DNA of 64,000 bases, from the IMG/VR virus record IMGVR_UViG_3300005077_000006, positions 32,001 through 96,000 of that record; one strand, written 5' to 3'. This document shows, piece by piece, positions 32,847-38,984 of the stretch. Position numbers and translations under genes: made by a program. Numbering within the stretch: position 1 is the stretch's first letter; each line of letters opens with the position of its first letter. Below the pieces are notes generated by a model. The model saw only the letters and a list, made by a program, of their open reading frames with translations, ran no database searches and was not told the origin of the DNA. The stretch comes from a virus.

Positions 32847-35800
32847 ATGGCACGTCTTTCCCCGGAAGAGGGCTTCAAGGTCCTCAAGGACCGGGTGGCG
32901 GAGACAGTCGGTGGCCTCTTCCCGATCGTAGGGAAGCGCCACACGCTCGAGATCAAGGACGTGTCCGTCAAGGACACCCTGAGCATTGATGACATCCGCT
33001 CGCAGAAGGAAGCGAAGATCGGGGGACGCACCTGGTCTGTACCAGTCGAGGCCACCGTTGCGCTGCGGGACAACCAGACTGGCAAGGTAGTTGACGAGCA
33101 GCAGCTCCGGCTGCTCAACCTGCCCAAGTACACGCGCCGCCACTCCCACATCGTGGACGGGCAGGAGTATCAGATCGACAACCAGTGGCGGTTGAAGTCC
33201 GGCATCTACGCGCGGGTGAAGGACAACGGCGAGCTCCAGTCCTCCTTCAACTTGGCCAAGGGTCGTGGGTTCAGCCTGGAGTTCGATCCCAAGACACGCC
33301 AGTTCAACATGGCCTACGGCACGTCGAACATCCCGCTGGCCCCACTGATGCAGGAGATGGGTGTTCACCCAGAGGACATCAAGGATCGCTGGGGAGGTGC
33401 CATCGCGCAGGCCAACGCCACAGATCGTGAGCAGGCCCTGCTGAAGTTCTACAAGGCATCCACGGGGGAGAAGCCGGGGAGCTTGGAGCAGGCGCGGCAG
33501 CATCTCAAGGACACCTTCGGTGCCACCCAGCTCCGGGCGGACACGACGAAGATCACCTTGGGCACACCCTACACCAAGGTGACTGGCCCGGCGCTGTTCG
33601 ATGCGGCCACGAAGCTGCTGCACGTGTCTCAGGGGAAGGCGGAGCCAGATCCCCGCGACTCCCTGATGTTCAAGGAGCTGCACAGCACGGAGGACTTCTT
33701 CGCCGAGCGTATTCAGAAAGGGACCAGCGACATCATGCGCCGGGTCCAGAACACGCTCGACAAGAAGAACAAGGTGCGCGACATCGTTGGTCCGGACATC
33801 TTCAACCGCCCGATCAAGACGATGTACCGGACGTCCCTGGCCAACGTGCCGGACCAGACGAACCCGCTAGAGATGCTGTCGGGTCAGCAGAAGACCACCA
33901 TCACGGGCGAGGGTGGCATCAAGAGCGCGCATGGGATCTCGGAGGAGGCCAAGCTGGTGGATCCATCCCACCTCGGCTTCCTCGATCCCATCCACACCCC
34001 GGAGGGGCAGACCACAGGCGTGACCCTGCGTCTGCCCCTTGGTGCCAAGAAGCGCGGGCATGATGTGACGATCAAGATGTTCAACCTCAAGACGGGGAAG
34101 AACGAGGACGTCACTCCTGAGAAGGCCCTGTCCTCCAACGTCGTGCTCCCCGACCAGGTCACCTGGAAGGGCGGCAAGCCGGTGGCCGCCAACAAGAGCA
34201 TCAGGATCAGTGGGCCTGGCAACGAGGTCATCGAGGGCGGGCTCAAGCAGGCGGACTACGTCATGCGAGACCCCATCCAGATGTTCTCGATGGCGTCCAA
34301 CCTGGTGCCCTTCATCGCTGCCGACCACCCCAACCGGAGCACCATGGCCGGCCGGCACATGGAACAGTCCATCCCGCTGGCTGCCCGGGAAGCGCCTCTT
34401 GTCCAGTCACTGGCTGCCAAGAACACCTTCGAGAAGGTGATGGGTCAGTACGCTGGCCACACCTCTCGCGTCAACGGTACGGTCACGAAGATCACGAACG
34501 ATGCGATCATGGTCAAGGACTCATCGGGCAAGGAGCACGAGGTCCAGCTCTATGATCACTTCCCACTGAATGCAGACAAGGGCTTCCTACACTCCTCCCC
34601 GCTGGTGAAGCCAGGGGACAAGGTGAAACGTGGGCAGCCCGTGGCGGACACCAACTTCACCAAGGATGGGACGCTAGCCCTGGGGACCAATCTCAGGGTC
34701 GGGTACATGCCGTACAAGGGGTACAACTTCGAGGACGGCGTGGTCATCAGCGAGTCGGCGGCGCAGAAGCTAGCGAGTGAGCACCTCCATCGCAAGTCTT
34801 TGGAGCGCGACAAGCAGACGCTGCTCAGCAAGACGAAGTTCCAGGCCTACGCTCCAGACGCCATCACCAGGGAGCAGGCGGACAAGCTGGACGACAGGGG
34901 CATCGTGAAGCCGGGCCAGCTTGTCCTGCCGGGGGACACGCTCATCGCTGCGCTACGTGAGCGCACAGATCGACGTGAGGACAAAGAGCTGGCGATGATC
35001 CACAAGTCGCTGGTCAAGCCCTACTCCGACGCCAGCGTGAAGTGGGAGGCAGATCACCCCGGCATCGTCCAGGAGGTGATCACGAAGGGGAAGAAGACAG
35101 CCGTCCATGTCAAGACGCTCGAGCCCGCGGAGATCGGGGACAAGCTGGCCGGCAGGCACGGCAACAAGGGCATCATCACCAAGATCTTGCCTGACCACGA
35201 GATGCCCCAGCTCAAGGACGGCACGCCTCTCCAGATCTTGTTGAACCCCACGGGTGTTCCGGGCCGTACGAACCTGGGTCAGATGCTGGAGACGGCGGCT
35301 GGGAAGATCGCAGAGAAGACGGGCAAGCCCTACTTGATCAAGAACTTCCAGCCCAACGAGGACCTGCACGCCCGCGTGGTGGAAGACCTGAACAAGAACG
35401 GCATCCCGGACAAGGAGGAGGTCATCGATCCCACCACCGGGAAGGTGCTGGGGTCTGTCCTCACGGGGCCACAACACATCGTCAAGTTGAAGCACCAGGT
35501 AGAGAAGAAGCTTGTCGCTCGGGCTGGCGGTCCGGGCTACGCATACGATCGCAACCTGGTGCCCAAGGGCGGGGGTCCCCATGGTGCGCAAGCCCTGGGG
35601 ACCCTCGGCCTTTACTCCATGCTTGCCCATGGGGCCAAGGCCAACTTGCGGGAGATGCAGACGCTCAAGAGTGACGCCGGACAGAACGATGAGTTCTGGG
35701 CTGCACTCCAGGCTGGTGAGCCTCTGCCTGCTCCGCGGCCCACGTTCGCCTACCAGAAGTTCACCAGCTACCTCAACGCCCTGGGCGTCAACGTCAAGAA

Positions 35801-38800: not shown

Positions 38801-38984
38801 CAACATGTTGCCGCTGGACATGCAGGAGGACTGGATTGCTAGAATGAACCATCAGCGCCTGTCTCAGACCGTAGTGGAGGCAGCGCAGCAGGGATGGACT
38901 AGCAAGCTGCACGGCAAACACCCGATCCCACCCGTCGTCTACGGCGCGGAGCTGGGCAAGGCGAAGAAGCCAGGAGAGTACTGA
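32847..38984 (+). CDS. rpoBC: Single-chain DNA-directed RNA polymerase, fused beta + beta' homologue
   Basis: beta motifs DPIHTPEG, GYNFEDGVVISE, GDKLAGRHGNKG, NPTGVPGRTNLGQ, TLKSD; beta' motifs GLFD, GHIQLAEP, PVLPPSMRP, KRDPALH, catalytic NADFDGD (36996-37016), GARKG, RSPLRC..GVCKKCYG, GERATQLAMKAFHTGG. Confidence 0.97.
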   Translation: MARLSPEEGFKVLKDRVAETVGGLFPIVGKRHTLEIKDVSVKDTLSIDDIRSQKEAKIGGRTWSVPVEATVALRDNQTGKVVDEQQLRLLNLPKYTRRHSHIVDGQEYQIDNQWRLKSGIYARVKDNGELQSSFNLAKGRGFSLEFDPKTRQFNMAYGTSNIPLAPLMQEMGVHPEDIKDRWGGAIAQANATDREQALLKFYKASTGEKPGSLEQARQHLKDTFGATQLRADTTKITLGTPYTKVTGPALFDAATKLLHVSQGKAEPDPRDSLMFKELHSTEDFFAERIQKGTSDIMRRVQNTLDKKNKVRDIVGPDIFNRPIKTMYRTSLANVPDQTNPLEMLSGQQKTTITGEGGIKSAHGISEEAKLVDPSHLGFLDPIHTPEGQTTGVTLRLPLGAKKRGHDVTIKMFNLKTGKNEDVTPEKALSSNVVLPDQVTWKGGKPVAANKSIRISGPGNEVIEGGLKQADYVMRDPIQMFSMASNLVPFIAADHPNRSTMAGRHMEQSIPLAAREAPLVQSLAAKNTFEKVMGQYAGHTSRVNGTVTKITNDAIMVKDSSGKEHEVQLYDHFPLNADKGFLHSSPLVKPGDKVKRGQPVADTNFTKDGTLALGTNLRVGYMPYKGYNFEDGVVISESAAQKLASEHLHRKSLERDKQTLLSKTKFQAYAPDAITREQADKLDDRGIVKPGQLVLPGDTLIAALRERTDRREDKELAMIHKSLVKPYSDASVKWEADHPGIVQEVITKGKKTAVHVKTLEPAEIGDKLAGRHGNKGIITKILPDHEMPQLKDGTPLQILLNPTGVPGRTNLGQMLETAAGKIAEKTGKPYLIKNFQPNEDLHARVVEDLNKNGIPDKEEVIDPTTGKVLGSVLTGPQHIVKLKHQVEKKLVARAGGPGYAYDRNLVPKGGGPHGAQALGTLGLYSMLAHGAKANLREMQTLKSDAGQNDEFWAALQAGEPLPAPRPTFAYQKFTSYLNALGVNVKKEGNNLQLIPFTDQQVKEMSNGEIKDAGRMVRAKDLKPEADGLFDPKVTGGLEGTKWGHIQLAEPMPNPLFERAIQSLTGLDQKSYLDVVTGRKAIDKSGKVTTNLDAGTTGGPAIAGLLKKVDTAQALAEAQKALQNPNLKGNRLDQANKRVKFLGALNSAGLNPHDAYMMKYVPVLPPSMRPLSQLPNGDLNFDDLNGLYKGIHLTSHQLKSTPDVLPEEEKHEVRAELYDGLRALTGLAGNPKREFRGILDILGGKRLETAGGFATGKKLGSPKEGFFQKKLVQRKQDLSMRSTIVPEPALGLDEVGLPRQAALEIYKPFVIRELRGMTGITPLDAQKQVKQGGELVNRALERVVEQRPVLLKRDPALHKYSVQAFKPRIVGGKAVQIHPLVTSGFNADFDGDTMAAFVPVTNEAVDEAKKMYPSRNLFSPSTGNLMYTPTLETQLGLYGITQSGKKTDHTFKTIQEVHSALNKGTIGFNDQIKVGGISSTTGRFLIGEALPTTMRGEFLKETGPLDKGAQRKLLTSVAEKHRNDYGEVVNKLKDLGNRWSTETAFSLGLDDIKPEKALRDKILKAADKQVGGRPDKAVQVYDKATQAMAKQFQHMPEQGNNLLLMHRAGIKPTEDTLRQIKMAPMLIANAKGEIIPTPVRKSYAEGLDLADYWTSMSGARKGIIQKVQQVQEPGYLSKQVMNSVMNNVIASDDCGTSTGISLATEEKDVLDRYLAAPVKAGKKTLPAGTLITPEVRNTLRNNKVGKVVVRSPLRCQHGPGVCKKCYGLTEDGKPPEIGLNVGVLAGQALGERATQLAMKAFHTGGTAATKEGLVDEFTRVKDLLLFPKTLPGSATLATISGTVEKIEKDPAGGHNVYVNGQRHYVPQNRGVPTLGGKILRRGMDVKKGVAISRGPINPHEMLPLTGVEPVQGYLSNELHNVYGPHGIRRRNTEVVVKSLTNLTKVDDPGDFGPYVRGDFAPQTEIANLNRHNKGAKPIKHTPVLKGVNMLPLDMQEDWIARMNHQRLSQTVVEAAQQGWTSKLHGKHPIPPVVYGAELGKAKKPGEY

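Follow-up and report, generated by a model that had tools for sequence, protein, structure and literature searches.

Single-chain beta-beta' RNA polymerases of a large phage family: a catalytic core with a probable sigma70-family partner

We analysed a window of 64,000 nucleotides (nt), positions 32,001 to 96,000 of the virus record IMGVR_UViG_3300005077_000006, in which one plus-strand gene encodes a polypeptide of 2045 residues that joins the beta and beta' subunits of a bacterial-type RNA polymerase (RNAP). We consider it likely that this protein is the catalytic core of the phage's own RNAP, and that the single beta-beta' chain works with a phage sigma70-family factor, is packed in the virion and is injected. 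Initiation would proceed through a phage-encoded factor of about 255 residues, whose gene would lie off the contig in the phage of the window, and this sigma would dock on the clamp helices and flap tip that the chain retains. The covalent fusion would replace, at least partly, the role of alpha in assembly. Enzyme and sigma would be made late and packed in the capsid, and the packed enzyme would enter the next host with the DNA and start transcription there, like the virion RNAPs of phiKZ-like and N4-like phages. A preliminary description of the window, made from its letters alone, had recognised the fused gene and pictured a virion-packaged enzyme possibly independent of alpha and sigma. Positions below are those of the window unless another sequence is named.

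Pfam profiles placed seven RNAP domains along the 2045-residue chain, the beta domains first and the beta' domains after them, which is the cellular order (Table 1). The catalytic positions are strictly kept. Among 33 aligned family members, G764, D765, K766, R770, N773, K774 and G775 of the beta catalytic motif are unchanged in all 33, and so is N-A-D-x-D-G-D of the magnesium-binding beta' motif, whose F1387 is at least 90% conserved; D-x-D-G-D is also present in all 22 family rows of the tree alignment described below. The uninterrupted open reading frame (ORF), the succession of beta and beta' motifs and the intact NADFDGD that the preliminary description had read from the letters are thus all confirmed. 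The C-terminal end of beta (…LGVNVKKEGN) joins beta' directly at about residue 17 of the latter, without an extra linker domain, and this beta-to-beta' junction is retained in the family consensus. An AlphaFold2 model covering the beta' half, built from a 43-row alignment, reached a mean predicted local distance difference test (pLDDT) score of 84.7 and a predicted template modelling score (pTM) of 0.74. The best 50 matches listed by Foldseek for this model in the PDB were all RNAP chains, identified as beta' by chain letter and length, with query-normalised TM-scores of 0.72–0.85. The best PHROG matches of the chain, phrog_25354 and phrog_24349, carry no function, and we did not build on them because their profile lengths of 1216 and 1191 resemble those of ordinary Firmicute beta' and beta.

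To describe how the phage chain is trimmed, we took Salmonella RpoB (1342 residues) and RpoC (1407 residues) as references, aligning them by BLASTP and by addition to the family alignment. The near-complete alignment to both subunits leaves the bacterial beta/beta' architecture nearly whole. Nevertheless, the chain has 2045 residues against 2749 for Salmonella beta plus beta' and 2276–2768 across 20 sampled bacterial pairs, all of which are longer, as the preliminary description had stated for cellular enzymes. Absent from it are beta 1-37; beta 215-356 and 932-1049, which we take to be the SI1 and SI2 regions in the E. coli naming of insertions; three loops in the C-terminal part of beta (1126-1141, 1161-1187 and 1198-1208); beta' 68-99 and 127-151; most of beta' 942-1189 (the SI3 region); and the C-terminal 42 residues of beta'. 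The zinc-binding domain and its four cysteines correspond to beta' 68-99. This stretch is deleted between GLFD and GHI, the gap being bridged as GLFDPKVTGGLEG-TKWGHI, and the same deletion is found in 18 of the 18 family rows shown, including Salmonella phage Arash, Vibrio phage D69 and one 43%-identical contig; the loss of this cysteine cluster, already remarked on from the letters, is therefore borne out by the alignments. Insertions unique to the phage chain amount to at most 18 residues relative to Salmonella, and hence no added promoter-recognition domain is visible. Structure prediction, proposed earlier as a way of mapping deletions and such an insert, supported an RNAP fold for the beta' half, but the alignment holds no insert of that kind. 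Other residues stand at the positions aligned with Salmonella beta H526, I572 and R687 in 33/33 members, and at the one aligned with S531 in 32/33. These are the classical rifampicin resistance positions, and given their replacement we predict that the enzyme should be insensitive to rifampicin.

The family to which this enzyme belongs is large, with hundreds of members; grouped at 50% identity, they form more than 150 clusters, mostly of about 2050 residues. A word-indexed protein search that scored 8000 candidates returned at least 1075 family proteins at E<=1e-3. Among the 120 matches listed, 80 are 2000–2110 residues long, three are shorter and 37 are longer, these last carrying LAGLIDADG, Hint or intein Pfam families. 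When the beta' half was searched exhaustively against 1.84 billion representatives of 50% clusters, 13,187 matches were obtained at E<=1e-3; the best 150 of these are all family-type (E<=8e-193, 36–81% identity), and in most of these 150 the beta' part begins near residue 1000, that is, the two subunits are fused. Many relatives reach 2400–4700 residues and carry LAGLIDADG, Hint or intein families, and their matches break at about three recurrent points, near residues 1389-1394, 1536-1545 and 1801-1802 of the window's protein, one of which is NADFDGD. This pattern suggests inteins inserted at conserved sites.

To place the family relative to bacteria, we built a tree of 42 rows and 2008 columns (22 family members including Arash and D69, and 20 bacteria of several phyla) with a quick IQ-TREE run under LG+G4. 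The branch between family and bacteria measures 1.45 substitutions per site and has a support of 100 in the Shimodaira-Hasegawa-like approximate likelihood ratio test (SH-aLRT), with Arash and D69 inside the family clade. Pairwise identity is 24–30% between family and bacteria, 39–76% among the bacteria and 28–79% within the family, whose internal diversity exceeds that of the sampled bacteria. The preliminary description had named nesting within a bacterial RpoBC clade as the mark of a recent capture; no such nesting was found, and the enzyme groups in none of the phyla of the tree, which was drawn without Campylobacterota or Wolbachia. In a scan of one genome per species for 185,579 species, of which the best 80 loci were kept, 77 loci are ordinary rpoB-rpoC pairs of 26–30% identity and three are family-type contigs. 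Two of these three, L062 (162 kb) and L063 (204 kb), carry a family-type RNAP with portal synteny and had been binned in metagenome-assembled genomes of Leptolyngbyaceae and Bacteroidales, while the third is a short contig. L062 and L063 probably represent phage genomes that were mistakenly binned together with their hosts, or whose bins give a hint of those hosts. By these sequence comparisons the enzyme belongs to an old, phage-specific family and is not a recent host capture.

Cultured members of the family exist. The nearest records in the phage database are those of Vibrio phages D181, D148 and D69 (31% identity, with 99% of the query covered) and that of Arash; a search for near-identical DNA among phages gave no match. 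In Arash the enzyme is split, gp206 (1525 residues) matching residues 25-1473 at 34% identity and gp216 (606 residues) matching residues 1478-2037 at 26%. The cut in Arash and D69 coincides with a loop where Salmonella beta' carries 17 extra residues, D181 and D148 have homing endonuclease genes within or close to the gap between the split RNAP genes, and bacterial beta' is uncut at this position. For these three reasons we regard the split as a derived trait, and the joint between beta and beta' as the state common to the family. The suspicion that the family might not be new, only poorly characterised, proved well founded: it is large in metagenomes and has cultured members, and in the literature searched, as far as the available sections go, a phage RNAP with fused beta and beta' and a sigma was nowhere described, the Arash paper (PMC10585845) being the only one to touch on the family.

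A sigma gene was sought on the whole 117,684-bp contig, window included, and the Sigma70 families PF04542, PF04545 and PF04539 gave no significant match there. Searches of the contig by tblastn with the sigma ORFs of relatives returned chance-level matches only, and those with the Arash sigmas gp10 and gp196, helicase gp217, gp4, gp8 and gp229 returned none. One weak Sigma70_r4 match (11.3 bits, genome positions 7913-7960) lies inside a 1081-residue late protein and was rejected as chance. The record is linear and, according to CheckV, about 64% complete, and we attribute the absence of a sigma to this incompleteness.

The relatives carry an ORF of about 255 residues that matches Sigma70_r3, mostly above the Pfam cut-off; regions 2 and 4 also match, weakly, and the regions follow one another in the correct order. 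Of the 23 records searched, 7 gave the region 3 match (G001-G005, Arash with its gp10, and D69), which are all the records at least 51% complete (7/7), and none of the 16 fragments of at most 36% completeness did. A profile of 35 of these sigma-like proteins matched 60 PDB sequences, every one of the sigma70 family, from region 2.4 through region 4 (RpoD, 2e-10). When 50,697 phage records were searched with the sigma by tblastn, only Arash, D69, D148 and D181 responded, the same four that have an RNAP of the Arash type. The protein collection holds 162 clusters of the sigma, and for six of them the longest contig equals in bases that of an RNAP cluster (108145, 127264, 137433, 109973, 113240 and 178277); we take these equal-sized contigs to be the same contigs. 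In G004, the closest long relative, whose RNAP is 79% identical, the sigma gene stops 4.8 kb short of the point matching contig position 1853, and in G002 about 5.7 kb separate it from the match to contig positions 1005-1850. Relative to the point corresponding to the left contig end, it lies 3–5 kb further out in these two relatives. The sigma gene of the window's phage would thus be expected a few kilobases past the left contig end, a rough distance because the intervening stretch is not conserved. A second G004 candidate, L041 at 85.5 kb, was rejected as a sigma because it is a helix-turn-helix/HNH protein.

Both of what we take to be the two main docking sites for sigma have equivalents in the phage chain: the flap-tip helix, presumably the site of region 4, and the clamp helices, presumably that of region 2 (Table 1). 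We predicted a complex of sigma with beta' 985-1450 plus the flap, using the pair P0005 and P0267 from one contig; unlike in the calibration, we supplied our own alignments and used three chains. The median interaction prediction score from aligned errors (ipSAE) was 0.51 (runs 0.43, 0.51 and 0.62) against 0.01 for the best control. In the calibration 58 of 80 solved complexes and 2 of 110 mismatched pairs attained the ipSAE mark, passing values of at most 0.60 accounting for only 7 of those 80 solved complexes and for both passing mismatches. The runs share at least 93% of contacts, and the partner pLDDT is at least 69. Taken together, the completeness of the contig, the sigma in 7/7 relatives' records of at least 51% completeness, its sole co-occurrence with the RNAP in cultured phages and the synteny run counter to the earlier idea of sigma independence, and the enzyme is very probably not sigma-free.

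The search of the rest of the genome for sigma and alpha recommended in the preliminary description thus gave a divided result, neither being found on the contig but sigma being present in larger relatives; the statement that no alpha, omega or sigma gene is recognisable in the window holds, by profile search, for the whole contig as well. The alpha family PF01000 matched in none of five records (Arash, D69, G001, G002 and G004) and not on the contig, and the omega family PF01192 in none of five (the contig, Arash, D69, G001 and G002), the Arash and D69 records being complete; as positive controls, each of 14 genomes matched both families. A search for beta' catalytic loci in five records found a single one in each. 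No match to the T7-like RNAP family PF00940 was found in 5/5 records, which shows little because its control found nothing anywhere. As to alpha and omega genes, the view of the enzyme as self-sufficient would appear to be partly right.

Next to the sigma, the gene's surroundings and the Arash particle bear on when and where the enzyme acts. On the plus strand the late block runs through four genes, the portal, minus-strand genes and ORFs, the RNAP, a 109-residue gene, a spike candidate, three genes and the large terminase. Across 33 related loci, the portal lies upstream in 26/33, the spike candidate downstream in 25/33 and a terminase in 20/33, most of the misses being loci truncated by contig ends; Arash and D69 are among the loci with the portal upstream. 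The placement between portal and spike that was first reported is therefore right as to its flanks, which relatives keep, but two minus-strand genes and two small minus-strand ORFs intervene between portal and RNAP. Coupling to a tagged small gene is likewise confirmed: the RNAP stop codon TGA (38982-38984) overlaps the ATG at 38984 of the 109-residue gene (ATGA), whose product has a ...DELEKMG leader.

Upstream of the RNAP gene we found a promoter-like element, CTTATAMC, which has three copies in the window where 0.20 would be expected, a number reached in 0 of 100 shuffles, and five in the whole contig, always on the plus strand and always intergenic. The two further copies of CTTATACC, both on the plus strand, lie outside the window at contig (G000) positions 108781-108788 and 117647-117654, the latter 30 nt from the right contig end and directed towards genome sequence that the contig lacks. 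Of 28 related loci, some of them near-duplicates, 20 have the element no more than 200 nt upstream of the RNAP gene, and relatives have it at the same three places as the window (head operon, RNAP and terminase). A second element, TT[TG]C[GA], follows it by 15–18 nt at 29 of 41 unique sites, with just seven matches at all other offsets. The resulting putative promoter, CTTATAMC-N15-18-TTKCR, is conserved and common to the RNAP gene and the head and terminase operons, and its two elements, about 16 nt apart, would fit a factor with two DNA-reading domains. In 14 aligned RNAP-upstream regions, T67, C68, T72, A73 and T77 are unchanged, and a TCTGnTA core lies downstream of the promoter-like motif. 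Scans for sigma70-consensus promoters showed no enrichment (3 found where 2.3 were expected, and 2 where 3.0 were), and a terminator scan gave the same outcome. One near-consensus sigma70-type promoter (TTGACA, 18 nt, TATCAT; 11 of 12 positions) stands at 47065-47094 on the plus strand before the gene at 47111, the sole strong one in the 38.5 kb scanned. K-mer counts, used to look for a second, early promoter motif, returned chiefly GC-rich coding words and nothing usable.

Particles of Arash were gradient-purified and then pelleted, and their proteome has been reported (PMC10585845). The protein detected most in the particles is Gp206 (3516 spectra, 128 unique peptides); Gp216 is represented by 1210 spectra and the sigma Gp10 by 467, and the second sigma Gp196 does not appear in the table (PMC10585845). 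The product of gp217, annotated as 'DNA helicase' and encoded directly after gp216 (OQ632216), was found at a level like that of gp216, with 1148 spectra and 38 unique peptides (PMC10585845). The sigma itself bears a possible tag: all 35 of 35 aligned sigma sequences have an N-terminal leader ending K-x-[AGS], of the ...[LIV][ED]K-x-[AGS] type as read from the alignment, and it may be a capsid-targeting or prohead-protease signal. Leaders of the form [LIV]-[ED]-K-x-[AGS] also occur on several unrelated late proteins, encoded by genes starting at 28470, 38984, 40592, 51105, 51924 and 53331. If the leader is a capsid-targeting signal, one may speculate that sigma could bring the core into the capsid. 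Virion packaging of the enzyme, as first proposed, is plausible from the Arash proteome, the portal-RNAP-spike synteny and the shared bipartite promoter, but this evidence is indirect.

Several observations weigh against a virion-borne enzyme with its own sigma. The sigma-RNAP complex prediction lends it weak support, and the pass may come from model memory, since sigma-RNAP complexes are solved. Because the contig has no sigma, the case for one in the window's phage is drawn from relatives and synteny; moreover, phage sigmas usually redirect the host core, and the 255-residue sigma of the relatives may do so too. The tree leaves out an archaeal outgroup, the fused enzymes of Campylobacterota and Wolbachia, and other phage RNAPs. 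The virion data come from a homologue just 34% identical, its table of 116 proteins includes ribonucleotide reductase, kinases and helicases, and the Arash authors offer carry-over of abundant proteins as an alternative (PMC10585845). The RNAP has no conserved LEKxA-type leader, the motif occurring at any one position in just 11 of 33 members. Finally, the CTTATAMC sites are predicted promoters that are not tied to any particular polymerase, and the element was not found in the stretches of 20 kb (G004) and 19 kb (G002) around the sigma gene.

Much of this can be turned into a different account, in which the RNAP serves middle or late genes without entering the virion, host RNAP starts the infection and the Arash particle peptides are carry-over. 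The many metabolic proteins among the 116 and the authors' own explanation speak for it (PMC10585845), as do the lack on the RNAP of the leader borne by other late proteins and the one strong sigma70-like promoter at 47065-47094. We nonetheless regard it as rather unlikely: Gp206, with its 128 unique peptides, tops the list in gradient-purified and pelleted particles, where the sigma Gp10 accompanies it and Gp196 does not (PMC10585845), the gene sits among virion genes family-wide and has a promoter type in common with the head and terminase operons, and sigma70-type promoters are not enriched. It is possible, but in our judgement doubtful, that the single chain borrows host alpha, and perhaps omega, as an assembly platform, an arrangement compatible with the sigma part of our explanation. 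All cellular multisubunit RNAPs have alpha-like subunits (PMC7598289), and beta' and most of the beta C-terminal region align with the bacterial subunits. However, a phage alpha was found in 0/5 records, the three beta loops (1126-1141, 1161-1187 and 1198-1208) and the last 42 beta' residues are missing, a packaged enzyme would need to take a host protein into the capsid, and other phage multisubunit RNAPs dispense with alpha (PMC7598289).

The two remaining alternatives fare worse. A recently captured host rpoB-rpoC fusion would explain the bacterial-type domain order and fold, and fused rpoBC genes do exist in some bacteria, but we give this origin next to no credence: identity to bacteria is 24–30% as opposed to 39–76% among bacterial phyla, the branch between family and bacteria is long with a support of 100, diversity within the family is above that of the sampled bacteria, and among the best 80 loci from 185,579 species genomes there is no close relative save the three phage-like contigs. 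A stand-alone virion enzyme needing neither sigma nor alpha and recognising promoters by itself accords with the lack of sigma, alpha and omega matches on the contig and with the deleted beta' zinc-binding domain, and the RNAPs of phiKZ and AR9 work without alpha and sigma homologues (PMC7598289). It is improbable all the same, since the contig is incomplete (64%), 7/7 larger relatives have a sigma70-family gene, which co-occurs strictly with the RNAP in cultured phages, phage-only insertions of at most 18 residues leave no extra promoter-recognition domain visible, and the flap tip and clamp helices are retained. Our explanation of a sigma-directed, virion-borne core may be carried one step further, although we hold this extension only tentatively and think it on balance unlikely. 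In it, core and sigma would form a minimal holoenzyme of two polypeptides, a core without alpha, omega or zinc domain and a small sigma whose cleavable ...LEK-x-A leader ferries the core into the prohead, and would start infection without the host polymerase. Since the RNAP gene is under the phage-specific bipartite promoter, its expression would on this extension depend on the particle-borne enzyme.

Table 1. Positions of the RNAP gene, its domains and motifs, promoter-like elements and neighbouring genes in the window (residue numbers refer to the 2045-residue chain; aa, amino acids)
Feature	Position	Strand	Basis or remark
Fused beta-beta' RNA polymerase gene	32847..38984	+	Open ORF, 2045 aa; Pfam, motifs, family alignment
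Ribosome-binding site GGAG	32835..32838	+	8 nt 5' of ATG at 32847
Rpb2_2	residues 138-278		Pfam
Rpb2_3	residues 335-396		Pfam
Rpb2_6	residues 541-896		Pfam, E 1.7e-64 (best match of chain)
Rpb1_1	residues 988-1199		Pfam, 39.1 bits, just below 39.7 cut-off
Rpb1_2, Rpb1_3, Rpb1_5	up to residue 1949		Pfam; Rpb1_2 E 1.2e-26
Beta part, aa 1 to about 988	32847..35810	+	BLASTP and MAFFT against Salmonella RpoB
Flap-tip-helix equivalent DRREDKELAMIHKS, aa 708-721	34968..35009	+	Aligned to Salmonella beta 897-910
Beta catalytic motif GDKLAGRHGNKG, aa 764-775	35136..35171	+	Conserved lysines (GDKxAGRHGNKG)
Fusion junction, aa 978-1000	35778..35846	+	Alignment with Salmonella subunits and family consensus
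Site of lost beta' zinc-binding domain GLFDPKVTGGLEGTKWGHI, aa 1026-1044	35922..35978	+	Alignments
Clamp-helices (coiled-coil) equivalent, aa 1180-1222	36384..36512	+	Alignment; 8 residues shorter than in Salmonella
Beta' catalytic magnesium-binding motif NADFDGD, aa 1384-1390	36996..37016	+	Family alignment
Split point of the enzyme in Arash and D69, aa 1473-1478	37263..37280	+	Ends of Arash gp206/gp216 alignments
Second zinc site, kept: C1692, C1753, C1760, C1763	37920..38135	+	At least 90% conserved in 33 sequences
Promoter-like element CTTATACC	32758..32765	+	89 nt before RNAP gene, counted from first letter of element; 82 nt before its start codon, counted from last
Second element TTTCG	32781..32785	+	15 nt after first element
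Leader element TTGATCTGCTAGCTTG in RNAP 5' untranslated region	32802..32817	+	Alignment of 14 RNAP-upstream regions
Promoter-like element CTTATAAC	25331..25338	+	50 nt before first gene of head operon ending with portal
Promoter-like element CTTATACC	44227..44234	+	39 nt before large terminase gene
Portal protein	29433..31475	+	E 9e-86, 32% identity to Arash gp204; 35% to D69 homologue
109-aa glycine-rich gene, starts MTEVQLAAMADELEKMG; N-terminal ...DELEKMG leader	38984..39313	+	Translationally coupled to RNAP gene
Probable central spike / baseplate hub protein	39314..40585	+	Sub-threshold Gp5_C, Phage_base_V, Gp5_trimer_C; phrog_4011 baseplate
Large terminase	44266-46098		30% identity to Arash gp1

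PHROG searches with ten neighbours of the RNAP gene gave one weak baseplate match, and hence we read the neighbourhood through homology to Arash (Table 1). The 109-residue gene has no Pfam or PHROG family and found a tblastn match in just 1 of the 33 relatives' loci. Upstream of the RNAP gene, the minus strand encodes a 137-residue, cysteine-rich protein (31934-32347) that is divergent from the RNAP gene, is RNAP-adjacent in 13 of 33 related loci and was assigned to no family, a 35-residue hydrophobic peptide ORF (32450-32557) and an extremely acidic 48-residue protein with a good ribosome-binding site (32557-32703). The true non-coding divergent region before the RNAP gene is therefore about 143 nt only (32704-32846). 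Elsewhere in the window, a replication module on the minus strand (8642-25291) comprises a family A DNA polymerase (PolA) with exonuclease, a DnaB-like helicase, a DnaG-like primase, a RecA-like ATPase and a superfamily 2 (SF2) helicase. A 1203-residue protein with a right-handed beta-helix region (894-4505, plus strand) is probably a tail fibre or depolymerase. A tRNA scan of the sequence found none.

Taken by itself the window is modest news, one more family member on an incomplete contig. The well-studied cellular-type RNAPs all need an alpha-like platform, and the phage exceptions, phiKZ and AR9, consist of many pieces and have lost sigma. The present family appears to follow the opposite design, keeping a near-whole beta/beta' in one chain, apparently with a sigma70-type factor, and doing without alpha, omega and the beta' zinc domain. 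If this is true, it would offer a two-protein system of bacterial type in which the need for alpha, omega and the zinc domain could be studied, an enzyme that is probably insensitive to rifampicin and has a promoter type of its own, and a further route by which large phages become independent of host transcription. Because the family turns up often in environmental sequence, and Arash and the D69 group are in culture, these ideas are directly testable. One chain with a sigma and without alpha would be a variant of the phage multisubunit RNAPs, and in the literature searched we found it described in no paper.

Comparison with known enzymes sets the family apart in several ways. Fused RpoB-RpoC proteins occur in cells, in relatives of Helicobacter and Campylobacter and in Wolbachia, and E. 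coli beta-beta' fusions have been engineered, giving one active chain. Such fusions consist of full-length subunits, keep the zinc-binding domain and work with two alpha subunits and omega. The window enzyme resembles them in joining the beta C-terminus to the beta' N-terminus; unlike them, its junction drops about 16 beta' residues, and the chain is shorter than every sampled bacterial pair, by about 270 residues in the case of L139 (2318 residues). The RNAPs of Arash (OQ632216), D69, D148 and D181 are homologous to it over their full length and have beta fused to the N-terminal part of beta'. Arash and D69 also share the deleted zinc-binding domain, the gene position after the portal, a gp10-type sigma, a single RNAP locus and the lack of alpha and omega. 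They differ in that the chain is cut into proteins of 1525 and 606 residues, whose genes are separated by 4.8 kb in Arash and by 0.6 kb in D69, and in the catalytic motif, AADYDGD as against NADFDGD in the window. Arash further has the second sigma gp196, to which tblastn found no match on the window's contig. In the available sections, the Arash paper offers an annotation of beta and beta' subunits and a proteome of the particles, but no analysis of the enzyme itself (PMC10585845).

The crAss-like gp66 and YonO likewise hold both catalytic barrels in one polypeptide (PMC7824862 for YonO), and gp66 is packaged in the virion. These proteins are minimal, highly diverged and related to RNA-dependent RNAPs; they are without the flap (sandwich-barrel hybrid motif, SBHM) insert (PMC7824862) and are not known to have a sigma, whereas the window enzyme has seven Pfam RNAP domains, an aligned flap insert and flap tip, and near-whole beta and beta' parts. 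The virion RNAP of N4-like phages is a giant polymerase carried in the capsid and injected to transcribe early genes, and the likeness is one of functional analogy alone, since it has a T7-like single-subunit fold and no sequence relation to the window enzyme. Closer in kind are the RNAPs of the jumbo phages phiKZ and AR9, which are phage-encoded, alpha-free relatives of beta and beta' and of which one set is packaged and injected for early transcription, the functional model that we propose for the window enzyme (PMC7598289, PMC7824862). They consist of four to five polypeptides in two paralogous sets and, in the sections available, are described as having no sigma homologue, AR9 using gp226 (PMC7598289, PMC7824862). 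The window enzyme, in contrast, has one chain, one locus per genome, a sigma70-family partner in its relatives and strong Pfam matches, and by sequence the phiKZ and AR9 enzymes are far more diverged.

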